A stretch of 61,747 bases of DNA, counting the filler. It is 7 parts of 7 records of this genome, joined end to end, with 100 filler letters (N's around TTAATTAATTAA, not from the genome) between each part and the next. Parts side by side here need not be neighbours in the genome. Positions count along the whole stretch, not along the records: positions 1 to 15,199 come from SRR31147125_8147; 6 more parts are not named here. One strand, given 5' to 3'. The translations under genes were made by a program, and so were the position numbers. This document shows, piece by piece, positions 1-47,507 of the stretch (the stretch's first letter is position 1; every line of letters starts with the position of its first letter). The notes beneath the pieces are model-generated. The model was not told where the DNA came from, did not search any database, and saw only the letters and a program-made list of their open reading frames with translations.

Positions 1-1201
1 TTTTTCCGGTCCTGCTACTATCTCAACATGAGTTTGTTTTGTAGTGGCATTCATCATTTGTGAAGCAATGTAGCGGCACCAAATTAAACTATATAGTTGA
101 TATTGATCGTCATTCAGAAATCGTTTTATTTTTTTGGCGTTCTCTTTACGGATGTCGGGCTAATAGCTGTGTTTCCATTTAATTGGTTTTTGGCAGATTC
201 GTAATGATGAGGTTTTATTGGGATATATTCTTTACCGTAATCCTCAAAAATAAGTTCTCGTGCGTTTGTTGTTGCCAGCTCCGGCATGCAACATGAATCG
301 GTATAAATGTGAGTAATAAGACCCACGAACACAGGCTTGCCCAGTGATATCCCTTCATAAAGTTGTTGCGCAATTTGCATGGTTTTTTTTATTGTATAGC
401 CGAAACGTTCTGATGCTGCTTGTGCCAGGGTGCTGGTTGTAAAGGGTGGGAGGGGATCGTTGCTAATTTTATTAAGGGAGAATTGGCTGACAGTAAATGG
501 ATACTCTTTTAGGTTAATAATGACAGCCTTGGCATAATTCAAATCCGGAATATTCGGTTTTCCCCCTTTTATCAACTGGAGATCGGCATTAAAGACGTTA
601 TTTTTTTTTGTTTTTAGTTTTGCCTGAATACCATAATGTTTTTGCGGGGTGAACAAGTCAATTTCATGTTCCCTGTCACACAATAAACCCAGGGCAATGA
701 CCTGTGGTAAACAATTATCCGGTTTTTTTAAAGGCGTTTTAAGAACGGATTTTAACCTGGAATAGGCGAGTTGATTAACAATGAGTCGTGCTCTGTGTGC
801 TTGAGCAAAATTTTTATTGATTTTATGTGGATTTTGGATGGCTTTTTTGATGATCTTTTTAGTAATTTGGTCAAACGAAATTCGTTTAATGCAGATTCCA
901 GAGTCGCCAAGTTCCTGAGCTAAATGGAGTGCATTATCTTCACCCACCGGCCCCAAGGGAGTTGCTATTAAAATTTGATCAACATCTTTTAACTTTTTCT
1001 TAGCGAATTCAGGAAATTTTTTGTTTTACTCGTTGTTTGAAATACGGTCTCATAACCGTTGTTCGTGTTCAGGTCGAGATTTTCTTGTGTCAATTCCTTG
1101 ATATTCCCGAGGATGGGGGACACAAGAAAATCTTTACCTAAAAAATCACGAAAGATCTGGCTTTGATTCTCGTTCTCAACTAAAATCAACGAATTATTCA
1201 T
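1..1201 (-). CDS. topA: Degenerate DNA topoisomerase IA (TopA) homolog, split by two frameshifts and running off the window edge; catalytic motifs absent
   Basis: ORFs 989-1201 and 126-956 plus the continuation KRFLNDDQYQLYSLIWCRYIASQM below nt 126 follow TopA in order (LILVE..., RISFDQITKK, PFTTSTLAQAAS, KTMQIAQQLYEG). Both breaks fall in poly-A runs. It lies directly downstream of smg, the usual smg-topA arrangement. Confidence 0.85.
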
Positions 1202-1236
1202 AAAATCCTTTGATAGGATAAAAAACTCGAAATGTC

Positions 1237-1704
1237 CTAATGACGGAGCCCTGTCGATGTAAATTGAAAGTAACCATTGGAAGCACTATTTTCAAAATCT
1301 AAAACGACGACTGCAATCAGGTCCTGCATATCTTCAATATCCATTTGTGGTACATGCAGGTTAACAGCACGGTCGATAATGGATTCCATATCATCGTCAC
1401 TCAAAAGATTGAGTTCTCTGAGATGGAAAAGATAGCTAAATGCTTCGGATGAAATGGTATTTCGTTCCATTTCATTTAAATGACGCCACAGGGGGCGGGG
1501 AATACCGGAGTTTTTGTTTCGATAAGATATATCCAGTTTATCGCCATGGTTCATTAACCAGCCCATGGCTGACTGTATTTCATCATCGCTAAAGCCTCGT
1601 TCCGACAGAATATTCATAAGAAATTCCAGATCAACATCATCGAAAAAGTTCTGTTGTATCTCTTTCATGACAAATGTCAATATCTCAAGAATGCGTTTAT
1701 TCAT
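1237..1704 (-). CDS. smg: Smg/DUF494 family protein
   Basis: 155-aa acidic protein with LSERGFSDDEIQSAMGWL and a RHLNEME motif typical of DUF494; upstream of topA. Confidence 0.75.
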   Translation of the reverse strand: MNKRILEILTFVMKEIQQNFFDDVDLEFLMNILSERGFSDDEIQSAMGWLMNHGDKLDISYRNKNSGIPRPLWRHLNEMERNTISSEAFSYLFHLRELNLLSDDDMESIIDRAVNLHVPQMDIEDMQDLIAVVVLDFENSASNGYFQFTSTGLRH

Positions 1705-1902
1705 TTATAATAATCCCATAATCTTTCACATGAGCAACCATATTATCAGCATGAATTATCGTCTGTGATAACATCCTATTTGTGCTGAAAGATATGCTTC
1801 TCCCTTCAATTTAGGAAAAAATAATTTAAAAGCAAGTATTTCAATTAGCAGCTTTGTTCTGTTTGTTAAATTGTTGCAAATATGGTACCTGAATTAATCA
1901 GA

Positions 1903-4900
1903 TCACATGTTTTTACCACAACATTGTTTGTATTTTTTACCGCTACCACAAGGGCAGGGATCGTTACGACCGACCCGCGTGGTATTCACGACGGTTCGTT
2001 GTCTTCCTGATTGTTCTGCTATCCGATTTTGTTTTTGATTTTGTGCGCTTGTACTCTGTGCTTGTTTGTATATCTCTACCTGAGAATGCGAGGTTCTGAA
2101 ATTTTTCGGTTCTACGCGACGGATTTGTTTTTCTTCTATTTCACCACCAATATCGAATATTTTAAATAACGTACTTACCACATCCCGGTTGACACGATCA
2201 ATCATTTTAACGAACATTTTATAGCCTTCGGATTTGTACTCCAGGAGTGGATCTTTCTGACCATATCCCCTTAATCCAATTCCTTCCCGAAGTTCATCCA
2301 TGGCATTGAGATGTTGCCGCCAATTTTCATCAATTTTATCAAGAATATAATATCGCTCATATCTGATTGCCAGGTTATCGCCGATTTCACTAACACGCTT
2401 GCGGTATAAATCTTGTGCCCAGGTGCTTAATTTATCCATGACTAAATTTGGATCCATGCGTTCATCGCTATCATCCTGGAGACGTGGAGATTGTCTAAAC
2501 AGTAACCGGCTCTCTGCCTGAATGCGTGGTATCGCCGAGTCGTCCAGGTCTGTCTCATTACCCAGAACATTGCTTATCACAGAATAGATAGCGTCATCTA
2601 TTGACATCAAAACAGAATCGCGGACAATTTCGCTGCTTAATTTTTCCTGACTGAGTCTTTCCTCTTTATATGCATGGTCTTCATATAAAGCCGAATCCCA
2701 TGCGATCAACTCTTCTGTGAAAGATGCCAGAGTATTTACGTCGTTATTTTCCGGTATTGATTTTTGTGGTTTTTGCAAAAACATGCAATATAGCCTCTGT
2801 GAGAGCTGCTGTTGGGTTGTTGCGGATATTTGATTTGAAATCAACATTTCCCTGCATACAGCCATTATAGAGGCTTCAATAAATTCTTCGATAGAAGCAT
2901 GTGATAACATGAATGCATCATAAGCGGTCATGTTTTTTTGCAGCGTTTTTGTAAATGCGTTATGAACAGAATTTACGATTTGTGATGCTGTTTGGTCTTC
3001 GTCAGAGTTTGAAACGATGTTGAGATCTTTAAACACTCTTTCCAGGAATGCGTGCTGATCTGCGTTAAACTGATATTTGTCTTTACCATTTCCTTCCGGA
3101 TTTGAAGTAATGAGATACTCTAAAATAGAATTGACGAAATTTTGTAGAGAAAAATAACCCAGAATTCGATGTCTGATGGGCGCGTGATCATTCTCATTAA
3201 TCGATAATGAAACGATCCATTCCTGAAGCAATTCACGGATTTTGTCACGACGAATGGTTTTAATTTCGTTATGTCCGATATTGGGTTTGGCCAGGAATAC
3301 TCGCTCCAATGCATCAAAAAACTCATCCGTGTTCCATGAAACAGAGGGGACAGAGCTATTCAGATGCAGCGTCATCAGACCAGCCAGAAAGATGTTAATC
3401 ATTTCATGGATTGTTAATTCGGCAAAGGTCGATTCATTGATACCTGTAAGGTTTTCTTGTACCATACTGGTGTATTTTTCTTTAACCCAATCAACTAATT
3501 GATTCTCAAATTGATCTGCAGTTAAATCTGCAGTTGGATTTTGAATGAAATCCGGATAACTCTTGAATATTCGTTCAATTTCATATTGGATGCCTTCAAA
3601 ATTCCAGACTGATATATCTCTTGTACCGGCATCATGCAATCTGATCTTTATTTTTACAAGCTCAGCAAGAAGCTTGTCCATGGAACAATAGCCCATGATT
3701 CGATGTCTTAATTGCGTTTCTTTTAAATGGCTATCTTCCTGCAACCGGGTGTCTATCCATGTTCCGATGGTTTCTTTTATGGATGCCTGATTTTGAGACT
3801 CCAGATCCGCCTCTGTAAATTCAGGCTCGCGATTGAAAAATCGTTGTAGATCCTGAATCAGGTCTTTAAGGTTCCATTCATCCTGATTGTTTTCTTCGCT
3901 AAAATAGATTTTGGTTTTCGATTCGACAAAGTCACTTGTCTGGGCAAAGCCCATTAAATTTTGTCTTCGTTTGTATATGATTTTTCGTTGTTCATTTAAT
4001 ACATCGTCATATTGAAGCAGGTTTTTTCGAATATCAAAATTGCGTTCTTCTACTTTCTTCTGAGCTCGCTCAATTGATCTTGTGATAAGTGGATGTTCGA
4101 TTCGTTCACCTTCTTCAGAAGGACCCAGTTTTGTCATAATGTTCGCTATTCGATCAGAGCCAAACAGACGCATCAGATCATCTTCCAGGGACAGATAAAA
4201 ACGAGATGATCCGGAATCACCCTGACGGCCGGATCGTCCTCTTAATTGACGATCGATTCGTCGAGCTTCATGTTTTTCAGAGCCTACAATATGAAGGCCG
4301 CCTTTTTCAATCACTTGAGGAGATAGTTTGATATCCGTCCCTCGACCAGCCATGTTGGTTGCAATTGTTATAGCACCCGGCACACCTGCTTTTGCCACAA
4401 TTTCCGCTTCATTTTGGTGATATTTCGCGTTCAGGACAGTGTGGAATCGACCGGATTCCAGTTCCCGGCTCACATCTCCTTTTTTCAGCCAGTTGGCTAT
4501 TGGAACGCCTCTTTGGGTAAACATCTGGCTTAATTTTTGTGAAACGTCAACAGAGACTGTACCTATCAGGACAGGACGACCATTATTGTGCATTTCAATG
4601 GCTTCATCGATGACGGCATTGTATTTTTCAAGTTTTGTTCTATAAATGACATCGTTCTGGTCATCTCGGACGACAGGTCTATTCGTCGGGATGACGATCA
4701 CTTCAAGTTTATAAGTACTAAAAAATTCCTGAGCCTCTGTTTCTGCCGTACCGGTCATGCCAGCCAGCTTTTCATAGATTCGGAAAAAATTCTGAATTGT
4801 GACGGTTGCCAGCGTTTGACTTTCAGACTGAACTTCGACACCCTCTTTTGCTTCCAGAGCTTCGTGCAAACCATCACTAAATCGTCTTCCCGGCATTAAA

Positions 4901-7900
4901 CGTCCGGTAAATTGATCGACAATCATGACTGCTTTTCGACCTTTTGTACCTGAGCCTTTGCCTCTGGTTTCTACTTCATCAACAGATTTAACAACGTATT
5001 CAACATCTTTATGATAGAGTGTATAGGCGCGTAAGAGTTGTGAAATGTTTTGAATACGTTCTTCTATATCATTGTATTCCCGCCATAAACGATCTCGTTG
5101 ATTTTCCAGCAGTTTTCGTGGTTTTCGATCAAAATAGAGCCGGCACCAATGTTCAATTTCTTCCGGAGTCAATACAGTATTGGGCGCATGAGCTTTTGAA
5201 ATCAGTTCATTTAATTCACCGTCGTCCAGAATGATTTTCTTTGCTCGCAGATGAGCTTTATCCTTTGATATAATACTATCCAGCTCAGCCCGGGTGTTTA
5301 CCTTTTTACTGCTCAGCCGCAGAATTTCTTCCCGAAATTGACGCAGTTCTTCAGAAAAACTGAAAAAGGGCAAACCATCAAGTAATTGTGTATTTACGGC
5401 TTTTCGTAATTTTGTTGGATAATTTTTTTCACTTAATTCAAAGATAGCATCCAGTTCGATATCCGAATTATCTAACAGGGCCAGCAAGCGCTCTGCGATC
5501 TGTTTGCGATCATCGGCATCATTTAACAGGGTGTGTACACCATTGTCGGACAATCCATTAAATCGTATTTGATCGATATTTTCAGTATCGACTGAGAAAT
5601 CCGCATCGAGTTCAAAATATCTTTTCAGTAATCGTTGTTTTTCAGAAGAGGACAAATCAGATCGATAAAGATTAGAAAACAGGATATTCATAATCCTGGC
5701 GATTCGTTCCACTTCTTCAAAGCGCCGGGAAATGCTTTTGGTGTCTTTGATATCTGTCTGGTCTACAGAAGAATTAAGGAAAGCATCCAGGCTGAATCGG
5801 AGGCTGATAGAATTTTCATTCTGGTCAGCCGTATGGGTTTCCCGCCACTCTTTTATTTTATTCTCGATTTCTGTATACGAATGACCAAGTAAACGATCTT
5901 TTTCCTGAGGAGCCAGACCAACTATTTTTCCTTCTTTAAAACTAAAAAGGTCTTTAAGGTTTTGCCTGGATGTTTGCAGGTTTTTATCAAAAGTGGACAC
6001 TACTGAGCGAGTTTGATCTGCGAAATCGGAAATAAACGCATTAAATGTATCCGTAACTTTCAAATTATAAACAGATGTCTGGTCACCCTGGGTTTGGGTG
6101 TCTACCTGGTAAAATAAAGCAATATTGTTCTCTGTTTTACCTTCAGGGCTATTTGTTATAAATTCTCCAATTTCCTGCAGATCCTGAGCCAGACGCTCCA
6201 CAGAGGTGGCCCGGGCAGCATAGTCAAATGAGACCTGATTTAACGTCTGATCCATAATTTTTTGAATTTCACTATCCCTGAGCTCAACAATGCTTCTATC
6301 AGGCAAGACATAAATATCCGGATTGCCACCTAAAATAGCAATTCTACCTTTTTCTGTAATATTTCGAACTATAGTACCATTATGTGAAAAATCAAAATAT
6401 TCTCGTTTTCGTTCATTTAGTGCATTCGTATCGCCCCCATTTTGTCCCCCATTTTTTGCAGAGCTGATATCTTTGTTTTTTAACAAAGCATTCAGTTTGG
6501 CAATAAAGGGAACCAGCATCGGATTACCATTATTTTTAAGAGCGATAAGGGCTGCTTTACCATCTTCTGTCAGGCCGATTGGGCAACCAAACTGTTTTTC
6601 AGTTACAAAAAAGGTCTCTTGCAGTAGACGTCTTTTATCCTGAATGGAACGACTTGCCGGGCCTTCATCCACATCAGCTTCTTGCTTTATCTTTTCAAAT
6701 AAAGGCGGTAAAAAATCGACAAGTGCTTTAAAAGAGCTGTTTTGTTCGGCGCTTTGAATGAATTCAAGGGTAGCAGTGGTGAGTCCATTTATTATTCGGT
6801 CACCTTTTTTAGCAAAATTAAAATATTGTCTCCATGCAGATGCTTTGTCTGTTTTTTTATTTTGAATGAGATCGGATATGTGATCATGTAATTTATTTAG
6901 GATTTTATCCAGAGTGTCCAGGAATCGCGTGTCTTCATCCGTTATTTTTGCATTTGTACTACAGAGGGCAATTTTCCCTTCCAGAGTGAGGCCATCACAA
7001 TAACCGGTAATAGAGTCGGTAGTAAAATAACGACTAGCATTTTTTTGCTCGCTCAGGTTTGCTAATAAATCATCAATTTTATCTAATTGCACGATCTGTT
7101 GAGCCACATCCTGATCACGGCCACCGGACAGAAAGATTCTGCCTTTTTCTGTAATGTCAAGAACGTGGGTTTTTTCGTCAATTATATAATAGAGTTCAGC
7201 ATCTACCTCGGACATGGTTTTATTTATTTCATATTGTCCCTGCAGGCGTTCGATAAGTTTTTTGACCCAAAATTCAGAAGTTAGAATTTCCAGGAGAGCG
7301 GGATTTTTGGGATTTCCTCGTTGAGCCCGTAACAGCATTAATGCGGCTGTTTCTTCATCTTTTTCTAATAGTTCCTTGCCATCTTTGACGAGTTTGTCAA
7401 CAAGCTCTTTTTGGCGTTTATAAAGATTGGCGACGACAGGTTTCAATTCATAGTAAACATTACGTGGTGCACCAACAGCTCCGGAAATAATAAGAGGTGT
7501 TCGAGCTTCGTCAATTAAAACACTATCAACTTCATCAACAATCGCATAATGTAGACCTCGTTGCACCACAGACCAGATATCTACAGCCATGTTGTCGCGG
7601 AGATAATCAAAACCAAATTCATTGTTCGTACCATAGGTAATATCCGCGTTATAAGCTTGTCTTTTCTCGTTCGGATCCATATCATTGTGCAACGCTGCTG
7701 TGCGGAGGCCGAGGAAATCATAAATTGCACCCATCCACTCACGGTCACGCTGTGCAAGATAATCGTTGACTGTGATTAAATGAGCCCCTTTACCTTCAAG
7801 GGCATTTAGATACAATGGAAAGGTAGCGACAAGCGTTTTACCTTCACCTGTAGCCATTTCAGCGATTTTTCCTTCATGTAGAACAATTCCACCCAGAATT

Positions 7901-8211
7901 TGCACGTCATAAGGAATCATATTCCATTCAATTTCCTGACCGCGTACGAGCCATTTTTTACCCACAAGGCGACGACAGGTATCTTTGACAGCGGCAAAGG
8001 CTTCCGGCAGGATATCATCCAGGGTCTCACCCATGCGGAGACGATATTTAAATTCCAGAGTTTTCGCTTTTAATTCATCATCTGTAAGTTTTTTATAGCC
8101 TTCAGCGATTTCATTTATTTCATTAACGCGCGGTTGTAATCTTTTGGCTTCACGTTCATTTTTCGTGCCGCCCATTACTTTCGCAAACGCTTTTTCGATC
8201 TTGGTAAACAT
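1903..8211 (-). CDS. secA: Preprotein translocase ATPase SecA, giant 2102-aa form with two large repeat expansions
   Basis: Walker [93 protein letters not shown] and C-terminal SEC-C motif [18 protein letters not shown] are all intact in one uninterrupted frame. Confidence 0.97.
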
Positions 8212-8263
8212 GGAACAGAGCCTCTCTTAGAAAATTAAAAAACTACTCTATTAGAAAAACCAT

Positions 8264-8283
8264 CGCCGCTCGAAAGAGCGGCG
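8264..8283 (-). terminator. GC-rich hairpin between nusB and secA (possible terminator or 5'-UTR structure of secA)
   Basis: Perfect 8-bp stem CGCCGCTC/GAGCGGCG with 4-nt loop; on the minus strand it is followed by ATGGTTTTT. Confidence 0.45.
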
Positions 8284-8333
8284 TTAATATAGGTAAATTT
8301 AAAAAAATATTAATCTCTTTCAATAATATTCAA

Positions 8334-8858
8334 CTAATCTTTACGACCCGATGTTTCTTTGAGTCCACGCCCGGATTTCACGAGTTGGTTTGTTTTTTTT
8401 AGTTCCAACAAAATAGCGTCCAGAATGCCATTTACGAACCGTCCGCTTTTTTCCGTGCTGTACACCTTGGATAATTCGATGGCCTCATCAATAGAGACCT
8501 TTGGAGGAATATCAAAAAAATATAAAAATTCGCAGATAGCCATTCTCATAATAAGTTTATCAATAATAGCAATTCGATTAAAGTCCCAATTTGCTGCTCG
8601 TTTTATGATATAGCTATCTAAATCCTGGCGATTTGCGTATGTTTTCTCTATCATTTTGTCTGCGAAATCCATCGCTTCAGCGTCTGCATCCGGATTGTCA
8701 CGAATTTGTCCGAGGACCATTTGCAGGGAATTCCCTGATAGTTCAAGGGCATAGAGGCCTTGTAATGTAATTTCACGAGCATGGCGCCTTGTGCCCGCAG
8801 AAGATGAGGATTTATACTCTTCATCTTCAAATCGTGTTGAATTATTTGATGTAATCAT
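8334..8858 (-). CDS. nusB: Transcription antitermination factor NusB
   Basis: RRHAREITLQGLY, NWDFNRIAIIDKLIMR, PPKVSIDEAIELSK, FVNGILD. Start uncertain; ATG at 8858 chosen over the ORF-track start at 8885. Confidence 0.93.
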   Translation of the reverse strand: MITSNNSTRFEDEEYKSSSSAGTRRHAREITLQGLYALELSGNSLQMVLGQIRDNPDADAEAMDFADKMIEKTYANRQDLDSYIIKRAANWDFNRIAIIDKLIMRMAICEFLYFFDIPPKVSIDEAIELSKVYSTEKSGRFVNGILDAILLELKKTNQLVKSGRGLKETSGRKD

Positions 8859-9768
8859 GCCACCCGTAAGTATCTTCACATTCACCGTTTACATAGTCAA
8901 AATAACGTTTTTGAATTTTTTCTGTTAATGGACCTCGGCGGCCTTTACCAATTTGAATTCGATCCACAGAACGAATTGGTGTAATTTCAGCAGCCGTACC
9001 AGAGAAGAAAATCTCATCTGCAATGTATAACATCTCTCTGGGGATGTTTCTTTCCACTACTTTGATATTTAATTCTTCAGCGATCTTTAAGACGGAATCG
9101 CGAGTGATGCCAGGCAAAATACTTGAGGCAAAGGCTGGCGTATAAATGACACCGTCTCTAATGACGAATATATTTTCACCACTTCCTTCACTGACCTGAC
9201 CATTGACGTCCAGGCCGATACCCTCTGTAAAACCATTTTGCATGGCTTCCATTTTAATTAATTGAGAATTCATATAATTGGAGCCAGCTTTGGCCAGGCT
9301 TGGCATTGTATTGGGAGCCATTCTATTCCAGGACGACACGCCTACATCAACACCAATCTCAATACCTTCTTCTCCCAAATAGGCTCCCCAGTTCAGCGCT
9401 CCAATAACAACGTCAACAGGACATTTGCTGGGATCCACTCCAAGGCTATGATAGCCACGATAAATGATAGGACGAACATAAGCGGATTCAAAACCATTTA
9501 TTTTTATGGTTTCATTACAAGCGCTTATAACTTCATCCAGGCTGAATTCAATCGGCATTCTATAAATTTTAGCCGAATCAAACAACCTGCGGATATGATC
9601 CGCAAGTCTGAATATGCTTGGCCCATGCGGCGTTTTATAACATCTCATTCCTTCAAACACACTTGTGCCATAGTGGATAACATGAGACATAACATGAATT
9701 TTCGCATCCGGCCAATCTACAAATTGACCATTAACCCAAATTTTTCCTTTTTCATCTCTTGGATCCAT
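8842..9768 (-). CDS. ilvE: Branched-chain amino acid aminotransferase
   Basis: HYGTSVFEGMRCY, KAGSNY, EGSGENIF, ILPGITR, GTAAEITPI (PLP fold type IV). Confidence 0.95.
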   Translation of the reverse strand: MDPRDEKGKIWVNGQFVDWPDAKIHVMSHVIHYGTSVFEGMRCYKTPHGPSIFRLADHIRRLFDSAKIYRMPIEFSLDEVISACNETIKINGFESAYVRPIIYRGYHSLGVDPSKCPVDVVIGALNWGAYLGEEGIEIGVDVGVSSWNRMAPNTMPSLAKAGSNYMNSQLIKMEAMQNGFTEGIGLDVNGQVSEGSGENIFVIRDGVIYTPAFASSILPGITRDSVLKIAEELNIKVVERNIPREMLYIADEIFFSGTAAEITPIRSVDRIQIGKGRRGPLTEKIQKRYFDYVNGECEDTYGWHDYIK

Positions 9769-9807
9769 TAAAGTCTCCCAAACATTTTTTATTTTAAATT
9801 TCTGTTG

Positions 9808-11505
9808 TTAGCGCAGATCTTTCGCGCGTAATTGTATGTTTTTTCTTCCCATATATTCGTTTTCTTCTATCACGTAAGCAAGATCCAGATCATGATTGCC
9901 GGGATTGAGGCGATAATATAAATCACCCATTCCAAATCCGATGACATCGAATACGTGACTGTTTTGACGAATTTTAAATTTGAGGTGATTCATTCCAACA
10001 ATGGATGGCGTGCCAACCACCTGAACATGTTGACTCATAAAAACGGGTCGTGTGTTGTGCGGGCCAAAGGGAGCGAACATTTTAAGTAATTTAACGAGTT
10101 TCGGATCAATGTCCTCAAGGCTTAGTTCCGCTTCGATGGCCAGCTTTGGAATGAGATCTTCCTCATTCAAATGGTCACCAGCGATTTGTTCAAACTTTTC
10201 AATAAACGCTGGTATATTCTTTTGTTCGATTGTTAAACCTGCGGCATACTTGTGACCACCGTAACCTATTAACAGGTCTTCACATTTTTTAAATGCATCG
10301 TATAGGTCGAAACCTTCAACACTTCGGGCTGAACCTTTTCCCACACCATCTTCTATAGAAATGAGAACAGTCGGACGATAAAATTTTTCAACAACACGGG
10401 AAGCGACAATACCAATAACGCCGGAATGCCAGCCTTCCTTATGAAGAACCAAAGAACGCGTTTGTGCAGGATCGAATTGTTGCTCCGCTTGCTCAAGAGC
10501 TTCATGAAACGTTTCTTCATCAACGCTTTTACGGTTTCGATTTTCCTGCTCCAGTATAGCTGCAATTTCGGTGGCTTCCTGTGCATCTTCGGTTGTCAGT
10601 AATTTAACAGCTCTTTCAGCATCTCCCATGCGACCGACCGCGTTAATTCTGGGAGCCAGAACAAAAACGATCTGGCCAGTGCCAATTTCCCTGTGCCGTA
10701 AATTAGAGGCATTTATAAGAGCCGCTAATCCGATATTTTCTGTTTCATTTAGCTTTGCCAGGCCATTCTTTACAAAAATTCTGTTTTCATCCACAAGCGG
10801 AACGATATCCGCGGCTGTTCCGATTGCGACAAGTTCAATATATTTCTCCAGAATGGAAAGATCTATTTCCATTCTTATCAATAAACCCTGAGCAAGTTTA
10901 TATGCGACACCGACGCCAGCGAGCTGTTTAAATGGATAACCACAATCATGTCTTTTGGGATCAAGAACTGCAATTGCATTGGGTAAAACAGGCGTAGGCT
11001 CGTGATGATCACTTACGATAACATCGATTCCATAGGAACGGGCGCGATCAATCTCATCGTGGCCGGTTATACCGCAGTCCACGGTGATGATCAAGTTAAT
11101 GCCATTCTCGTTGGCTTTATCAATTCCTTTATCTGAAAGGCCATAACCTTCCAATTGTCTATCCGGAATATAATAAAATACGTTTGACCCAAGTTCCTTT
11201 AAAATAAGATAAAGAAAAGAAATAGAGGTGATTCCATCTACATCGTAATCTCCATAGATTAAAATATTTTCATCACTCAGCACGGCACGGCGTAATCTTT
11301 CTATTGCCTTGTCCATGTCTTGCATCAAAAAAGGATCATTGAGAAAATCAATTGAAGATTTAAAAAACTTTTTTGCTGTTTCCAGATTGTCTATTCCACG
11401 TCTGAGTAATATTTGAGAAATGAGAAGGGGAACGTTTAAACTGGTAGCAAGAGAATTTACTTCTTCTTTGAAATTATCATTTGCCATTACCCAATTAAGG
11501 TCCAT
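9808..11505 (-). CDS. recJ: Single-stranded-DNA-specific exonuclease RecJ
   Basis: YGDYDVDG, TVDCG, DHH, GTAADIVPL, PRINAVGR, GSARS, GGHKYAAG. Confidence 0.96.
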   Translation of the reverse strand: MDLNWVMANDNFKEEVNSLATSLNVPLLISQILLRRGIDNLETAKKFFKSSIDFLNDPFLMQDMDKAIERLRRAVLSDENILIYGDYDVDGITSISFLYLILKELGSNVFYYIPDRQLEGYGLSDKGIDKANENGINLIITVDCGITGHDEIDRARSYGIDVIVSDHHEPTPVLPNAIAVLDPKRHDCGYPFKQLAGVGVAYKLAQGLLIRMEIDLSILEKYIELVAIGTAADIVPLVDENRIFVKNGLAKLNETENIGLAALINASNLRHREIGTGQIVFVLAPRINAVGRMGDAERAVKLLTTEDAQEATEIAAILEQENRNRKSVDEETFHEALEQAEQQFDPAQTRSLVLHKEGWHSGVIGIVASRVVEKFYRPTVLISIEDGVGKGSARSVEGFDLYDAFKKCEDLLIGYGGHKYAAGLTIEQKNIPAFIEKFEQIAGDHLNEEDLIPKLAIEAELSLEDIDPKLVKLLKMFAPFGPHNTRPVFMSQHVQVVGTPSIVGMNHLKFKIRQNSHVFDVIGFGMGDLYYRLNPGNHDLDLAYVIEENEYMGRKNIQLRAKDLR

Positions 11506-11567
11506 AAATAGCTAACTCCAACCGGTCTCTAGTATATTAAATATGAGGAAAATTACTTTTAAAAAAA

Positions 11568-11933
11568 TCCAAAGCAGGTCGATAAGCCGAATTCTGTAAT
11601 CCAATGGTTATTGGATTGACGATCATTTATCTAGGACATCGATTGCCCGATATCTCAAGCGACCTACCCAAGAGTCAAATGAGGCGGACGACCTCTTCTC
11701 TCTTATTTGGTCTTGCTCCGGGTGGGGTTTACCATGCCTCTGATGTCACCATCAAAGCGGTGAGCTCTTACCTCACCCTTTCACCTTAACCCTGATAAAA
11801 ATCAGGGATGTTTGCTTTCTGTGGCACTTTCCTCGCCTCACGACGAGTCCGCGTTACGGACCACCCTGTCCTGTGGAGTTCGGACTTTCCTCATCCGGAT
11901 CGAGCCGGACGCGATCGTCTGACCTGCTTTGGA
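11568..11933 (-). ncRNA. rnpB: RNase P RNA (bacterial type A)
   Basis: Minus strand has GAGGAAAGTCCG near the 5' end, AGTGCCACAGAAA, GGTAAACCCCACCCGGAGCAAG and ACAGAATTCGGCTTAT near the 3' end. The ends TCCAAAGCAGGTC/GACCTGCTTTGGA pair as P1. Confidence 0.96.
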
Positions 11934-11992
11934 CTTTTATTTTAACATAGTTGAGCTATATCATCTACAAATAAATCCTTGATTTGAAAAAA

Positions 11993-12739
11993 TTACATAT
12001 TACCGTTATCGTCATCCAGGCAATTTCCCTTATAATCAGGGCTCCATACAAGAATTCGTCCACAAACTTCGCAAAAATAGAGTTTGTTCATCATCCTGAT
12101 TTCCAGGCCACGCTGAGGTGGTATCCGAGAGGAACATTTGCTGCAGGCGCCATCTTTAAGAAGAGCAAGGGCACTACCACCCCTGCCATTACGGATACGC
12201 TCATATGTTCCTATAACCGGTTTTGAGAGTTGAGTAATAATCGTGTTTCGTTGCGCTAAAAGAAGTTCTTCTTCTTCACGCGTTTTTACCAGTAACTCAT
12301 CCAGGACGGCATTTGTTTCAGTTAATTCTTTTTTCTTTTCCTCAACTTCTTGTTCCAACGTCTTTGCTTCAGTTTCTGAATTGGTAATCACCTCGTCAAT
12401 TTCCAACGTATCTAATTCGAGTTGATCAATCGCTTCTTTTGCGTTTTCAATTTCAAGCGTCACAGCATCATACTCTTTATTAGTTTTGACCTGGTAAAGC
12501 TGAGTTTGATATTTTTTTAGTTTGTCCTGAAGCAGAGCAAGATCACCTTCAAATTTGACGTGATCGGATTTCAAATTCTTATTTTGTAGACGTTTGTTCT
12601 CGAGGTTTTGTCCCAGATTTTCAACTTCCGTAGATAGAGCCTTAACTTTTTGAGGGAAATCCCCTTTGGATTGCTCTAATTTTAGTATTTTATAGTCAAC
12701 TTCCTGCAGATCGATTAGAGCTTCCAAAGCAATTTTCAA
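11993..12739 (-). CDS. Coiled-coil protein with C-terminal C4 zinc ribbon (DUF164/CT398-like)
   Basis: Long coiled coil, KTNKEYDA, YERIR, CSKC...CEVCGRIL. TTG start at 12739 follows an AGGAG RBS. Confidence 0.88.
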   Translation of the reverse strand: MKIALEALIDLQEVDYKILKLEQSKGDFPQKVKALSTEVENLGQNLENKRLQNKNLKSDHVKFEGDLALLQDKLKKYQTQLYQVKTNKEYDAVTLEIENAKEAIDQLELDTLEIDEVITNSETEAKTLEQEVEEKKKELTETNAVLDELLVKTREEEELLLAQRNTIITQLSKPVIGTYERIRNGRGGSALALLKDGACSKCSSRIPPQRGLEIRMMNKLYFCEVCGRILVWSPDYKGNCLDDDNGNM

Positions 12740-12796
12740 TTTAACACTCCTTGCACAAACAGTACACATTTCTTGTTAGACGTGATTTATTATTTA

Positions 12797-12832
12797 TAAA
12801 AAAAAGTGCACCCAAATAAATGAATGCACTTT
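12797..12832 (-). terminator. Intrinsic terminator-like hairpin in the leader of the zinc-ribbon gene
   Basis: Minus strand AAAGTGCATTCA-TTTATT-TGGGTGCACTTT followed by a T run. Confidence 0.55.
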
Positions 12833-12949
12833 AATAACTATAGCATACCCACAATGTTAATTGTGTTCGAAAATCCGAACAATATTTTTTACTCTCAGTT
12901 TTCAAAGAAGTATCAAACTCCTGAATAGAATAACAGTTCTTTTTCTTTA

Positions 12950-12978
12950 AAGATAACCGTATATGCATTAAAAATCAA
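12950..12978 (-). promoter_or_regulatory. Putative sigma70-type promoter
   Basis: TTGATT-17 nt-TATCTT on the minus strand; AT-rich context raises the chance of a coincidental match. Confidence 0.4.
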
Positions 12979-13059
12979 GCAAAAAGTGGGATCTGTTAAT
13001 TAAGTGATGTTAAAGAGCTGTCACTCTCTGTTTTTTAATTCAGGACGATTTTGTCATAG

Positions 13060-14220
13060 CTATATAGTGTCATGAAAACATTGATATGCACCGTTTTGTA
13101 TCAAAAGAGATGGTGTGCCATTTTGCATATAAAGATAAATTGATTTTATTTTTATACGTGGCTGCGTTTCAGGTATGTAAATTCGATCAATATGAATCAC
13201 GTGTTCTGGTGCAGAGAACTGGGCTGGACCCACCATTCCGCCAAAATGATCACTACGACCAAAAGCGATATGAAATCCAAGTTTTTCATCCAATAACACC
13301 TCTCCAATGGGCTTGAGACCAAAGTCCGCAAGGACTCCAAATCCCAGTTCAGCCATATTGGCGTAGGCAGGTTCGTTTTTTATCGTTTTTTTCTCTTTTT
13401 CACTAACAGGTCCTTCACTCACAATGTCAATTGCCTGATTTTGGTGGATAGAATAGATCACGATTTCATCGTCAAATTGAACAGGTAACAAGCCATTGGT
13501 TTCGGATTTTTCATCCATTTCACCTTCGTAGGGGACGATGTATGTTTCGCCACTTGGGAGGTTGCCTGCGGTTCCCTTGAGTGGAAATCGGCCGCCACTT
13601 GCATGAGCATTGCGAAAGCGTAAATCAAATTTCATGTTATATTCATGCTGATCATCCACAAGAAAGGTTGTTTCTGCCAATCTTGCCATATCCAGTTTTT
13701 CTTTCAATAGTTGTGTTCTCGCATTAATCTCATTATAGTCCAGTTTCAGGGCAGAAATCATGTTAACCGAGAATCCAGGCATGGTGGCCGCCCGAAAACC
13801 GTATTCTGCGGCCGCTATTTTCATAGGTGCTGTGGCAGAATATTCCGTCAGAACGAGAAAGAGATGACATTGGGTAAAGACCGATTTTTTGGATATGACA
13901 GGCGCTTCCTTGTCAATGGCATCAAACGCAGGTGGGAGAGAATCCTTTAAAAGGTACATATTCTCAGGTAAATCGGCATTGTTGGATCCAACATTCTTAT
14001 AAGCAACAAGTTTAATTTTATCTAAATTTAATAACGATAATTGTTTTTCAAGTTTTAGAGTCCAATCCAATGCTATTTGGCGTCTTTTAGCCCAATTTTT
14101 ATTATCCTCAGTTTTCCTAGTTGGCAAGTCTACCATTATCGCTAACACCCGATGTTCAGACAAAGGAGGAAAAACGGACATGACCAGATTCGTGAGTTCA
14201 GTTGTTGTAAGAGTTTCCAT
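13060..14220 (-). CDS. Aminopeptidase-like metalloprotein (thermophilic metalloprotease M29-like)
   Basis: GNLPSGE, AELGFG, DEKLGFHIAFG and HID motifs. Confidence 0.7.
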   Translation of the reverse strand: METLTTTELTNLVMSVFPPLSEHRVLAIMVDLPTRKTEDNKNWAKRRQIALDWTLKLEKQLSLLNLDKIKLVAYKNVGSNNADLPENMYLLKDSLPPAFDAIDKEAPVISKKSVFTQCHLFLVLTEYSATAPMKIAAAEYGFRAATMPGFSVNMISALKLDYNEINARTQLLKEKLDMARLAETTFLVDDQHEYNMKFDLRFRNAHASGGRFPLKGTAGNLPSGETYIVPYEGEMDEKSETNGLLPVQFDDEIVIYSIHQNQAIDIVSEGPVSEKEKKTIKNEPAYANMAELGFGVLADFGLKPIGEVLLDEKLGFHIAFGRSDHFGGMVGPAQFSAPEHVIHIDRIYIPETQPRIKIKSIYLYMQNGTPSLLIQNGAYQCFHDTI

Positions 14221-14544
14221 AAAGCCCTATCCTTGATTAAGAATGTTATTTTTTGAAAAAATGAGTTATATATTTATTCTGAAAGATTCATTTTTATCTA
14301 TAGATAGTATTGTAATTTTTAACAAGAAAACATAGTGATAATTTTGTTTTTTTATTCAGGATCTGGAAAAAAATTACCTGTGCTATAAAAAAGATAGATG
14401 GGGCAATGCCATCCAAAAGAAATATCCTGATTCGAGTTCTAAAGAAAAAGATGGTTGCATCTTTCTATATGAACAATATATTAAAATATGAGAATAGTAA
14501 AATAAATTTACAGGTATGACTTTAACTCTCATTCCGAGGGAATA

Positions 14545-15199
14545 ATGGAACTTCTTTATAAAGAAATATTAAATCATACACCTACGTGTACTTGTGTTAC
14601 GGACAAATGGTTTCAAATTATTTTCGCAAATCGAGCTTTTTTGAAGCTGACAGGATACAATAGCGAAGAATTTATCGGATCTAATCTGCAAGACCATTTC
14701 GCGTATATCGCTCCTGAATTGGATCTAACCTGTCTTGTCGAAGAATATACCAAAAAGAAAGTTGATGACCATTTTCCAGGTGTGCTGGTTCAAAAAAATG
14801 CAGGAATGAAGCCGGTTATCATTCGTGCAGAACTGGTTTGTTCGAAATCTAAAGATTGTTTTCTGGTTTTCAAAATCGAGGAACATTTTCTCCAAATTAA
14901 TGCCTCCAAGCCTGGTAATAAAGACGTGTTGAGTCTTTATGATGATAAATTGCAAAGTGCTTTTATACTTGATACACAAGCGAGATGTGTATATGTAGCC
15001 GATCACATTTTAAAACGGACAGGTCAATCCGAAAAATCATATTTAGGAAAGAGTGTTTTGGAGCTGATAATTGAGGAAGACAAATCGACGGCAGCGACTT
15101 ATTTTAATAGAACGTTAGAGGGTGAAAATCTTTTACCTGTTGAATTGGGATTGCATACAGATAAAAGTAATCTGATGTGGGTCGTTGTTCATTCGTCTC
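14545..15199 (+). CDS. PAS-domain sensor protein (partial, cut by contig end)
   Basis: Two PAS-like repeats (IIFANRAFLKLTGYNSEEFIG; CVYVADHILKRTGQSEKSYLGKS). Confidence 0.75.
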
Positions 15200-21203: not shown

Positions 21204-21303
21204 NNNNNNNNNNNNNNNNNNNNNNNNNNNNNNNNNNNNNNNNNNNNTTAATTAATTAANNNNNNNNNNNNNNNNNNNNNNNNNNNNNNNNNNNNNNNNN
21301 NNN
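21204..21303. other. Artificial contig linker
   Basis: N44-TTAATTAATTAA-N44. Confidence 0.98.
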
Positions 21304-21752
21304 AGTGTTGAGATATACGTAAAAAACCTAACTCCCACATCCTGGATATCAAAAACCATAATATCGATATCTTTTAGGTCCTCGCTCTTTGGCTTATAAT
21401 TATTACCATAAATAGAGATTATAGGCACACCTGTTTTTGAATCAACAGAATCATCTACTGTTTCCCCGGCTTCAGCTTCACCACGAAAACCATGTTCCGG
21501 AGCAAACACTTTTTTTATGTTCAATTCAAACGACAGAAGAGTATCAACAAGGTGAGTGGAATATACAATAGATGTTTGGTTAGAAACAATGCCTACAGAT
21601 TTATTTTCCAGCAAACCCAGGTATTTGTCAAACCGCTGCGCACCAACAAGAATTTCTTTGTTTTCGACTTCCTTTTCATTACTGGTTTGATTTGAACATG
21701 AATAAAGGCTTAGAAAATAAAATAGTAGTAGTGATATCAATATGCTTCTCAT
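21304..21752 (-). CDS. DUF1343/NamZ-family exo-beta-N-acetylmuramidase lipoprotein (N-terminal part)
   Basis: NQTS, FAPEHGFRG, FDIQDVGVRFFTYIST. Confidence 0.9.
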
Positions 21753-28579: not shown

Positions 28580-29155
28580 ATGCCACCTCGTGAAGATATC
28601 TTTTATGCTGGCCATTATTATCATGCTTTTAATCGTGGAATTAATAAAGAAAATATTTTTTTAAGTAAAAATAATTATTTCCACTGTTTAAGATTAATAA
28701 AAAAGTACTCGAAAAAGTATGATATCTCTGTAATTGCTTACTGTTTGATGCCGAATCACTACCATTTTTTATTATATCAAAATGGTGAAAAAATGATATC
28801 CCAATTTATAGGCACTTTATTTAATGCTTACGCTCAGGCATTTAATAACGAAAGACATCGTAAGGGAGCGTTGTTTGAGGGGCGATTTAAACATGTCCAT
28901 GTTGATAAAGAAGCCTATTTAATTTACCTGTGCAGGTATATCCACCGCAATCCTGTTGATGCCAATATTGTAAAACAACCTGAGGACTGGATGTTTTCCA
29001 ATTATCGGGAATGGGTAGGACAACGAAACTGAATTCTTTTTGACAAAGACTTTATGACTGAGTATTTCAAAAGTTCGCAAATCTATCGTGAATTTGTGTC
29101 AGATAATGTTGATGATGAAACAGATGATAGGTTAAAGCCCTATTATCTGGATTAA
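28580..29155 (+). pseudogene. REP-associated tyrosine transposase (Y1/HUH) with in-frame TGA at 29030-29032
   Basis: YYHAFNRG, AYCLMPNHYH (HUH), LFEGRF, YIHRNPV. The frame stays open for 40 codons after the TGA and ends at TAA 29155. Confidence 0.8.
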
Positions 29156-39420: not shown

Positions 39421-40429
39421 TATTTTCCCTGAATATCTTTTCTGATAAAATTCAACTTTAAAAGTAATTTTTTTGTTTCTTCTATATCCAACCGATGTGT
39501 GTTATGCGATGTGTATTCAACAACCTTGGAAATTTCATCTTTTCCTTCAGAAAAATATTGATTATAATTAAGATCACGGTCATCTGCTGGTATTCCATAA
39601 AAATCCCCCAGATCTTTCGCTCTAGCCATTTCTTCCCTATTCACCAGAGATTCAAAAAGTTTTTCGCCATGCCGAGTACCAATGATCTTTATTTCATTAT
39701 CGGAGTTATATAGCTCCTTTAATGCATATGCCAAATCTTTGATGGTTGATGCTGGCGCCTTTTGTACAAAAATATCACCTGAATTACCATTTTTAAATGC
39801 GTATAAAACAAGATCAACAGCATCATCCAGCGTCATCATAAAACGGGTCATGTTAGGGTCTGTAATTGTGATAGGCTTTTTTCCTTGATTTGCTGTACGA
39901 ATAGAGGAATAACGGAACCACGAGAAGCCATCACATTACCATATCTTGTACCACATAATATAGTAGTATGATTTGCATCTCTGGATTTAGCAATCATAAC
40001 TTTCTCCATCAAAGCTTTGGACATTCCCATTGCATTTATAGGATTAACCGCTTTGTCTGTACTGAGAACAATTACTTTTTTTACCTTACAGGAAATAGCG
40101 GCATTCAATACATTTTCAGCTCCTAATATATTTGTTTTTACTGCTTGCATAGGAAAAAACTCACACGAAGGAACTTGTTTTAGTGCAGCAGCATGGAACA
40201 CATAATCGACATTATGCATTACACTTAATACACTGTTATAATCTCTTACATCACCAATATAGTATTTAACCTTAGGATTATTTATCTTTTTACGCATATC
40301 ATCCTGTTTTTTTTCATCACGTGAAAATATACGTATTTCTTTCAGGTCGGAATCTATAAATCGTTTTAATGCAGCATTACCAAATGAACCAGTGCCACCG
40401 GTAATCAATAAAGTTTTGTTATAAAACAT
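39420..40429 (-). CDS. FnlA/CapE-type UDP-GlcNAc 4,6-dehydratase, single gene split by a homopolymer frameshift near 39880
   Basis: GGTGSFG, FSRDEKKQ, AALKQVPSCEF, STDKAV, RYGNVMASRGSV; PITITDPNMTRF resumes in the second frame. Confidence 0.92.
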
Positions 40430-40711: not shown

Positions 40712-41268
40712 TCAAACAAATTTGTTTTTATATATAATTAAATATAAACCTAATCCAAAAATACCCCACATAAATGGTGCGGCCCAAAAGGAAGCATAAT
40801 AACAATTTGTAAAGTTAATATTTATTATCTCTAAAATTAATATTGCACCAAATACTTTTAATAAATTTGCATTTTTATTAAAAATCGTTGAAATAATTTT
40901 TTTAAGTACCAATAATAACAAAATAAAATTGGGAATAAATAAAAAAAGACCCCCTCCTCCTAAAACAGCTAAATAAAAATTATGTGCTTGCCAAATATTG
41001 CGAAATGAAGTCTCGTTTAATCCATAAAAATTATAAGCATCACTTATTTTATTCTGTGTAAAACCAACACCAAATAACATATTATCTTTAAAATTATCCC
41101 AAATAAATTCCCACCTTATCAATCTAGTAGAAATAGTTGATAAATCTGTTGTATTTACAAACATATCATTCAGATTTCTAGATCCTTGATGGAAATAAGA
41201 TATCCCATAATCCGAAGCATATTCTATTATAAAATCAGCAAAAATTAAAATAATAACAAATAAAATTG
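40712..41268 (-). CDS. O-antigen ligase/polymerase family membrane protein (C-terminal part)
   Basis: R..W...FGVG and AHNFYL motifs with TM segments. Confidence 0.7.
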
Positions 41269-46981: not shown

Positions 46982-47081
46982 NNNNNNNNNNNNNNNNNNN
47001 NNNNNNNNNNNNNNNNNNNNNNNNNTTAATTAATTAANNNNNNNNNNNNNNNNNNNNNNNNNNNNNNNNNNNNNNNNNNNN
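46982..47081. other. Artificial contig linker
   Basis: N44-TTAATTAATTAA-N44. Confidence 0.98.
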
Positions 47082-47507
47082 CCAAAATTCACGTTTGCTT
47101 ATTTTTTCAGCAGGTATATTTGCGATTTCGCCGTGCAGTCCATAATTTTTGCCATCAACTGAACAAGGGGTCCCGATGTTATTCAGTCCACTGGTAGTCA
47201 AAAGTCCACCATAGAAACTATCAAGAAAGCCCTTGCCCTGATTTTCATAAAAATATTGAGGATTCCTTAACCCCGATTTCGATATATACCCAAGTGGAAT
47301 ACCTTTGTAAGTTGCCTGACCAATGTCTAAGCACCTTGAACTCAATATAGAAAAATTCAAATCACCAGTGTTGACATCAATAGCATCAACACCTTTAGCT
47401 CTTCCACTATTATACGTATATTCTTTAAAACCGCAAATTTGCGATAGACTCCCAGTCTTCTTCAATAACTCCTCTTTTTTATACGATTTCCCATATAATT
47501 TAACCAT
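47082..47507 (-). CDS. Aldose 1-epimerase-like (DUF4432) protein, N-terminal part
   Basis: GRAKGV, RCLDI, FYGGLLTTSGL, LHG. Confidence 0.8.

Follow-up and report, generated by a model that had tools for sequence, protein, structure and literature searches.

Few bacterial machines are as conserved or as thoroughly studied as SecA, which commonly has about 800–1,100 residues. In the window analysed here, a stretch of 61,747 nucleotides joined from seven parts of seven records (positions 1 to 15,199 come from the record SRR31147125_8147), the minus strand encodes a giant SecA. Its open reading frame (ORF), at 1903..8211, has 2,102 codons and a stop, and residue n of the protein begins at window position 8211-3(n-1). 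We propose, with a probability of about 0.85, that this ORF is a functional chromosomal secA of a bacterium of the candidate phylum KSB1 (Candidatus Zhuqueibacterota, of the FCB group), and that the bulb of its preprotein cross-linking domain (PPXD) has grown by serial tandem duplication.

According to this proposal, one native element was duplicated serially, in tandem and anciently, which enlarged the PPXD bulb by about 650 residues. The duplicated element comprises a beta-hairpin; a short helix (G-L/I-T-x-x-G-K/R); a turn of the form PD-x-aromatic-x-x-PD, here called the PD motif; and a longer helix. The putative copies are named U1 to U9. Five of them appear clear (U1–U5, aa 336–660), two are probable (U6 and U8), and two are marginal candidates (U7 and U9). 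The outer halves of the first block preserve ancestral sequence, with U1 keeping the DEK hairpin and U5 keeping the PD motif.

Gene identity and domain content

The ORF is a giant SecA with all the canonical domains. The whole protein scored above the cut-offs of two NCBIfam equivalog models, with 955.1 for NF009538 (cut-off 814) and 897.1 for TIGR00963 (cut-off 800). Of the NCBIfam models, the FCB-type NF009536 scored highest; it matched in five stretches with 1,080.5 bits, below its cut-off of 1,493. Among the Pfam families, SecA_DEAD (PF07517), the DEAD-like nucleotide-binding domain 1 (NBD1), scored 404.5 bits; P-loop_SecA (PF21090), which corresponds to NBD2, scored 232.4 bits; SecA_SW (PF07516), the wing and scaffold family, scored 185.8 bits in two stretches; and the SEC-C zinc motif (PF02810) was found at aa 2082–2100 with 37.8 bits. 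SecA_PP_bind (PF01043) scored 69.2 bits against a cut-off of 23.5, and the profile positions 56–110 alone were matched, at aa 1050–1120.

The motor, the stem-proximal PPXD, the C-terminal half of the PPXD, the two-helix-finger region and SEC-C are conserved and strongly constrained. The strong purifying selection on the motor is consistent with ATP-driven translocation of preproteins through SecYEG.

Position and origin of the PPXD insert

The preliminary description of this DNA, made from the sequence of one strand, had proposed for positions 5107–7194 (aa 340–1035) an insert that arose by internal duplication of the native PPXD hairpin-helix. Our analyses support this origin by four independent lines, namely profile similarity among the units, their register on the native element, the order of predicted secondary structure, and the displacement of the PD motif.

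Fragment scans against NCBIfam placed aa 230–345 on positions 303–424 of NF009536 (E 6.8e-25), U1 on positions 409–467, and aa 1041–1135 on positions 479–557. The insert itself (aa 366–1040) matched no Pfam or NCBIfam family, and the same result was obtained for U2–U9 scanned singly. In the alignment with E. coli SecA, aa 230–278 correspond to residues 201–249 and aa 1055–1130 to residues 297–356; thus about 48 residues of the E. coli protein (249–297) correspond to about 777 residues here (aa 278–1055). In relation to a one-copy FCB-type SecA, about 650 aa are extra, and they are placed directly after the native PPXD beta-hairpin and helix.

Descent from the native element was examined with an alignment of one-copy PPXDs, which makes the comparison independent of the U1 of the giant protein itself. 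A search with aa 225–400 among shorter proteins returned SecAs of about 1,015–1,120 aa from Marinimicrobia and other FCB bacteria, and 89 of these, each of at least 990 aa, formed the alignment. The best local match of each of U1–U6 and U8 fell on the same native hairpin-helix, in register. The scores were 96.5 for U1 (E 2e-17), 55.4 for U5 (E 2e-9, through the PD motif), 29.0 for U6, 28.2 for U3, 25.6 for U4, 22.1 for U8 and 19.2 for U2, and the reversed controls reached 9.2–15.4.

The PD motif gives a further line of evidence. Of the 89 one-copy relatives, 81 have the pattern P[DE]-x-aromatic-x-x-PD, and in the 14 examples listed it stands directly after the single hairpin-helix; read off these examples, about 55 residues separate it from the QN-x-SQLLRAY helix. 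In the giant SecA, SGGRDQ stands after copy 1, and an 11-residue string that contains the motif stands after copy 5. The earlier claim that NPDIYVLPD (aa 630–638) follows the fifth copy, instead of the first, is correct.

The repeat signal in the lone sequence is modest. The five strings on which the preliminary description was based were found at aa 340–361, 394–416 (G407), 462–485 (G476), 533–555 (G546) and 604–626 (N617), with landmark spacings of 55, 69, 70 and 71 aa, and the two further 11-residue strings were found at aa 765 and 886. In Smith-Waterman comparisons with 1000 shuffles each, the U1-U5 score of 49 was matched by none of the shuffles, and the scores of U2-U4 (41), U1-U2 (37) and U3-U5 (35) were reached by 3, 6 and 4 of them, respectively. 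A self BLASTP of the whole protein returned the diagonal alone. In the gene DNA, Tandem Repeats Finder reported three trivial short arrays and no unit-sized tandem repeat, which indicates that the duplication is old.

A clearer signal was obtained from an alignment of giant SecAs. This alignment, named A1, was built from 37 homologues and has 38 rows and 2,161 columns, almost free of gaps. It was cut into tiles of 70 aa (starts at aa 316–1051), and all non-adjacent pairs of tiles were compared by hhalign. As controls, the 210 pairs were compared again with one tile reversed, which keeps composition and helical periodicity, and the maximum of these controls was 21.8. Internal repeats were evident, with 44 of the 210 real pairs above this maximum. 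The top pairs were in the register proposed earlier: aa 337–385 with 391–440 (U1-U2, 42.7); aa 534–566 with 605–633 (U4-U5, 41.4); aa 393–443 with 461–513 (U2-U3, 37.3); aa 393–440 with 532–579 (U2-U4, 37.2); and aa 345–364 with 610–629 (37.2). A hidden Markov model (HMM) of all five units matches its own members by construction, and leave-one-unit-out HMMs were used for this reason; they recovered U1 (5e-7), U2 (1.8e-6), U5 (1.8e-5) and U4 (6e-4).

Layout and predicted structure of the array

AlphaFold2 was run on aa 230–1130 with an alignment of 39 rows (A2). The model has a mean predicted local distance difference test score (pLDDT) of 77 and a predicted template modelling (TM) score of 0.55, and 663 of its 901 residues have a pLDDT of at least 70. 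In this model the order strand, strand, short helix, long helix occurs nine times, at all nine proposed positions, with the units starting at about aa 342, 396, 464, 535, 606, 701, 756, 866 and 924.

The array is preceded by NBD1 and the N-terminal part of the PPXD (7207..8211, minus strand, as for all features of the gene; aa 1–335), which includes the helical elaboration typical of FCB-type long SecA. U1 (7036..7206; aa 336–392) is the native hairpin-helix, with the DEK hairpin and the ITEKGRIFL helix, and its PD motif is degenerate. U2 (6838..7035; aa 393–458) is joined to U1 by the highest tile score and has the leave-one-out value given above; its predicted strands lie at aa 396–398 and 405–408 and its helices at aa 410–415 and 425–452, and an isolated model of U2 (pLDDT 81.8) has the same pattern of strands and helices as the long model. 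U3 (6625..6837; aa 459–529) is the most diverged of the first five, with a predicted hairpin and helices. U4 (6412..6624; aa 530–600) pairs with both U5 and U2 in the tile comparison. U5 (6232..6411; aa 601–660) bears the ancestral 11-residue motif (aa 628–638, window 6298–6330), whose residues are invariant in A1.

U6 (5962..6135; aa 693–750) is diverged and has a long hairpin, with predicted strands at aa 701–708 and 712–719 followed by helices. U7 (5812..5961; aa 751–800) is a possible, marginal unit that includes the 11-residue string at aa 765; its predicted strands lie at aa 756–759 and 762–766 and its helices at aa 768–775 and 779–792. U8 (5464..5640; aa 858–916) is diverged, with RYFELD and a further 11-residue string, and is predicted as a hairpin with helices. 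U9 (5287..5463; aa 917–975), also possible and marginal, is recognised by strings of 12 and 10 residues and has predicted strands at aa 924–926 and 932–935 with helices after them. Inside the units, the conserved positions are mostly of the core type (aromatic-aromatic, G-L-T, G and L).

The insert closes with a helical return segment (5062..5286; aa 976–1050), after which the conserved C-terminal half of the PPXD begins. This segment is predicted as helices, with a long one at aa 1016–1068, and has a mean identity of 0.57 among the giants. The C-terminal half (4807..5061; aa 1051–1135) corresponds to positions 57–110 of SecA_PP_bind. Within aa 1076–1094 (window 4930–4986), between two strands after DVEYVVK, there is a loop of 16 residues rich in Gly, Lys and Arg, which has no counterpart in E. 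coli SecA, where the alignment has a gap, or in the listed one-copy FCB SecAs.

Expansion of the helical wing domain

A second expansion is found in the helical wing domain, as serial copies at 2395..3936 (minus strand; aa 1426–1939), of which aa 1852–1939 is the copy at the native position. The region of about aa 1426–1851, from the scaffold helix to the conserved C-terminal part, is self-repetitive with periods of about 90 and 180 aa, and 37 of its 91 tile pairs exceeded the control maximum of 18.3 in hhalign. A profile of the one-copy wing domain matched aa 1852–1939 (48.1), 1510–1585 (42.7), 1426–1489 (36.5) and 1600–1669 (20.2), with a reversed control of 15.9, and a W-N/D-x-x-x-hydrophobic motif recurs at aa 1446, 1536 and 1626. 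This insert has about 430 aa. Both of the inserts that double the size of the protein are therefore copies of native modules.

Distribution

A database search with aa 330–1050 returned 37 proteins, with 39–95% identity over the insert and nearly all of 2,049–2,111 aa; they are public under generic names, and those few that are named carry the label candidate division KSB1. A search of shorter proteins with the insert found fragments of giant SecAs alone. Two candidate forms of intermediate length were rejected: P0035 (1,575 aa) starts inside the insert and is thus a fragment, and P0021 (1,429 aa) has the anchors at the positions of the giants, so that its shortness is C-terminal.

A search for related loci with the single insert sequence found nothing. 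A scan for the invariant U5 motif, written as a degenerate DNA pattern, over the genomes of 185,579 species found 38 loci, every one of them encoding a giant SecA. The frame is complete from stop to stop in 30 loci (2,060–2,166 aa), and the other eight are cut by contig ends. The neighbourhood is conserved across the 38 loci, with nusB adjoining in 36, recJ in 34 and DUF494 in 31. No second secA was found in the 687,457 bases of locus flanks, which says little on whole genomes.

Many of the locus records are titled candidate division KSB1, which in the NCBI taxonomy is Candidatus Zhuqueibacterota of the FCB group. Others have automatic labels such as "bacterium" or, in many cases, "uncultured Cytophagia", and two are titled "Calditrichota/Calditrichaeota" and one "Actinomycetota". 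The giant SecAs of L006 (with the Actinomycetota label) and L025 (with a Calditrichota label) are 94% identical, and the submitter taxon labels of these metagenome-assembled genomes are therefore unreliable. The giant SecA appears to be confined to the uncultured phylum KSB1.

No description of a giant or repeat-expanded SecA was found in the literature searched. In the main text of the KSB1 genome paper PMC11683472, the terms SecA, Sec and translocase do not occur. The main text of a second one (PMC9012183) has "Sec" four times and "translocase" nowhere, with no SecA among the 12 of 25 places listed.

Age, conservation and possible function

In a phylogenetic tree of 263 unit sequences, seven unit classes formed pure clades, each with all of its 37–38 members and with support of 0.88–0.99. 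Since the units group by position and not by species, all of their duplications are older than the diversification of the clade, and concerted evolution among the units is absent. The copy number, which the preliminary description had suggested comparing among homologues, proved to be fixed. Over 73 sequences (database proteins and locus ORFs, which overlap), the distance from U1 to U5 is 241–268 aa and that from U5 to a 10-residue anchor is 411–435 aa, each varying by less than one unit. The repeat array is old and fixed, unlike young arrays with varying copy number.

The mean pairwise identity among 36 full-length giants is 0.73 for U1, 0.71 for U5, 0.76 for NBD1 and 0.85 for NBD2; it is 0.33–0.39 for U2–U4 and 0.30–0.35 for U6–U8. 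U1 and U5 are thus about as conserved as the motor, and the inner units evolve about twice as fast. Slow array ends and a fast middle are what one would expect of an array whose ends still touch the PPXD core in the native manner and whose middle projects as an arm peculiar to this lineage. The DEK hairpin of U1 and the PD motif of U5 are as strictly conserved as the core, a pattern that could have arisen by a staggered tandem duplication in which the outer halves preserved the ancestral contacts. The ratio of nonsynonymous to synonymous substitutions (dN/dS), calculated by the Nei-Gojobori method for seven close genome pairs, is 0.05–0.22 in U2–U4, 0.05–0.29 in aa 661–1040 and 0.004–0.11 in the motor. 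The insert is therefore a selected part of the protein, as these values are well below 1.

In known SecAs the PPXD bulb turns about its stem through as much as about 70 degrees, from the wing domain in the wide-open state to NBD2 in the closed state, and preproteins are bound bivalently, by the PPXD and by regions next to it, as described in PMC11610655. The giant PPXD probably still swings between the wing domain and NBD2, in the same clamp cycle as that of ordinary SecA. The enlarged bulb and the multiplied wing domain may offer a bigger surface, which could hold or sort unfolded preproteins or dock a partner.

It is quite conceivable, at somewhat less than even odds, that the arrays do not bind substrates at all. 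They could serve in oligomerisation; in autoinhibition or regulation of the clamp; or in docking to another machine, such as the ribosome, the membrane or an accessory Sec factor. They may also be a structural elaboration that is tolerated, and kept for the sole reason that the domain would misfold without it. The fast evolution of the inner units (identity 0.30–0.39) and the mostly core-type character of the conserved unit positions fit these roles. On the other hand, neither length nor copy number varies by as much as one unit over the 73 sequences, and the dN/dS values of 0.05–0.29 denote constraint. In addition, the PPXD is expanded together with the opposite wing domain, which might point to a shared functional surface.

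A role of the arrays as a cradle for substrates is tentative and rather doubtful, and the multivalent preprotein-binding arm suggested in the preliminary description is likewise hypothetical. A more specific form of it is improbable as it stands: the giant would be the sole SecA of KSB1/Zhuqueibacterota, and its approximately nine PPXD units and five wing units would pack together into a large built-in preprotein cradle on the flank of the signal-peptide groove, so that the motor would carry its own holdase.

Evaluation of the duplication origin

Several results speak against the growth of the PPXD by duplication, or narrow its extent. At the sensitivity of HMMER, no unit matched Pfam SecA_PP_bind, native U1 included, and it was for this reason that the units were compared with the one-copy PPXD alignment. 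Apart from the four pairs given above, the unit pairs are weaker, and most are not significant in the single sequence by Smith-Waterman against shuffles. U3 was not found again by the leave-one-out HMM built from the other four unit classes. The hairpin of U1 has low pLDDT in the truncated AlphaFold2 model. In Foldseek searches of the PDB, the 901-aa model gave a best E of 0.09, to large helical proteins with TM scores below 0.1, which are meaningless, and the isolated U2 gave a best E of 2.3, with SecA absent among the 50 matches listed; it matched RRM and MarR-like chains, and for so small a unit the search counts neither for nor against a shared fold. U7 (10.3) and U9 (13.9) did not exceed the reversed controls against the one-copy PPXD, and neither of them had support above controls with a profile of seven units: when U6 and U8 were added to the profile, U9 was not raised (17.3 against a control maximum of 18.0) and U7 was not detected.

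The last of these results also favour another explanation, in which U1–U5 alone descend from the hairpin-helix, and the 380 residues of aa 661–1040 are largely unrelated helical filler with convergent hairpins. Besides the behaviour of U7 and U9, aa 661–692 and 801–857 match no unit, and long helices without hairpins are predicted in the distal part. We consider this explanation unlikely, though with more standing than the two that follow. The 5-unit profile, applied to aa 655–1050, matched U8 at aa 855–908 (38.4, E 2.6e-6) and U6 at aa 693–741 (28.0, E 2.6e-4), with controls from other protein parts and reversed regions not above 16.7, and both units also match the native element in register (22.1 and 29.0, respectively). 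The AlphaFold2 model gives U7 and U9 the same strand-strand-helix-helix order. Two tile pairs, aa 719–766 with 887–935 (31.8) and aa 531–556 with 920–944 (25.1), are above the control maximum of 21.8.

Among the weaker copies proposed earlier, those near aa 717 (U6) and 886 (U8) were thus borne out, and those near aa 765 (U7) and 934 (U9) remained marginal. The sequence support of U7 is weak, with one tile pair at 23.4 against the maximum of 21.8; U9 scored 19.8 at aa 917–959 with the 5-unit profile (control maximum 16.7) besides the 17.3 given above, and the tile pair at 25.1 joins it to U4. Both are marginal candidates based on predicted secondary structure and marginal tile scores. The range of 5–9 units given in the preliminary description was right: five units are strong, the sequence supports another two (U6 and U8), and two are marginal.

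A foreign insert, such as a fused gene, a remnant of a mobile element or an intein-like insertion, is very improbable. It would agree with the absence of any Pfam or NCBIfam family in aa 366–1040, and with an exhaustive phmmer search of 1.84 billion representative proteins, in which this region matched giant SecAs or their fragments only, five in all. However, the units are in register with the native element of one-copy SecA and with native U1, the frame is continuous in the 30 complete genes, and dN/dS is far less than 1. Searches of Pfam, NCBIfam and the ESM Atlas revealed no foreign family; in the last of these, a look-alike search with aa 390–1040 gave no usable match.

Chance or compositional likeness of amphipathic helical segments, or an artefact of assembly, can practically be dismissed: the single-sequence similarity is weak for most unit pairs, the DNA has no repeats, and the window has genes split between frames elsewhere, as topA, but the 44 real pairs exceed a value of 21.8 that the reversed controls never passed, and the same architecture is present in 38 independently assembled species genomes and in 37 database proteins.

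Comparison with known SecA proteins

The closest known protein is the FCB-type long SecA (NF009536 / PRK12901), whose cut-off the giant does not reach and which shares with it everything except the two arrays: the N-terminal helical elaboration of the PPXD, the hairpin-helix, the PD motif, and the motor, wing/scaffold and SEC-C parts. The giant adds about 650 aa between positions 467 and 479 of the model and about 430 aa in the wing domain. Its PD motif stands after copy 5 and copy 1 is without the motif, whereas the relatives have one hairpin-helix.

The PPXD of canonical SecAs (E. coli 2fsf and 2vda, B. subtilis 1m6n, T. maritima 3din) is alike in its stem-proximal part, its C-terminal half and the domain order. 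No solved chain matches the insert of the giant, either by sequence or by fold search with Foldseek. The VAR subdomain in NBD2 of E. coli SecA is another non-universal elaboration, which modulates the motor; it is small, non-repetitive and in a different domain from the arrays. The rotation of the bulb about the stem, as described for canonical SecA in PMC11610655, is presumably retained in the giant.

Inserts are also known in SecAs of thermophiles, with 50 aa in Thermotogales and Aquificales and 76 aa in Thermales (PMC7023208). Like those of the giant, they are clade-specific, conserved in length, surface-exposed and usable as taxonomic signatures. They differ in being single stretches of the ATPase domain (of NBD1, for the 50-aa insert), which are not described as repeats in the passages of PMC7023208 that deal with them; those of the giant, one of about 650 aa in the PPXD and one of about 430 aa in the wing domain, consist of copies of native elements.

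Genomic setting

The neighbourhood of secA is composed of ordinary housekeeping genes. Upstream are nusB, a class IV aminotransferase, recJ and the RNase P RNA, a full-length bacterial class A molecule (11567..11930, minus strand, 307 bits) placed directly upstream of recJ. Downstream are DUF494 and then topA, which is split between frames. The topA gene (window 1–1285, minus strand) is broken over at least three frames, at 989–1285, 126–1025 and 1–159, and may be either a pseudogene or the result of indel errors in the assembly.

In the rest of the window, several genes look truncated or split, at 39423–40429 (minus strand) and at 21255–21752, 40715–41164 and 47037–47507. A Polysacc_synt_2 gene is spread over two adjacent ORFs, and NamZ, Wzy_C and DUF4432 are represented by short fragments; these genes fall partly in low-GC stretches. 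The GC content is strongly uneven over 14000–41000, where blocks of 27–32% alternate with blocks of 40–45%. The low-GC blocks, at about 14–15 kb, 18–28 kb and 34–41 kb, carry glycosyltransferase and polysaccharide genes, a porin and an IS200-like transposase (28580–29029).

Significance

This lineage doubled its SecA to about 2,100 residues without a foreign domain, by multiplying two peripheral modules, the hairpin-helix of the PPXD and the helical wing domain. In the wide-open state the lobes that hold these modules are opposite each other, and the enlarged form has been kept fixed under purifying selection over at least 38 species. The giant SecA may be considered as a natural experiment on the role of the PPXD bulb, since it is a multivalent version of one sub-element, and it provides an uncultured phylum with a clear molecular signature. 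In addition, it is a clean example of the growth of an essential protein by intradomain duplication, in which the outer halves of the array would retain the ancestral contacts. If the giant were the sole SecA of these bacteria and its arrays formed a cradle, this would change how an essential and otherwise near-invariant machine receives its substrates.

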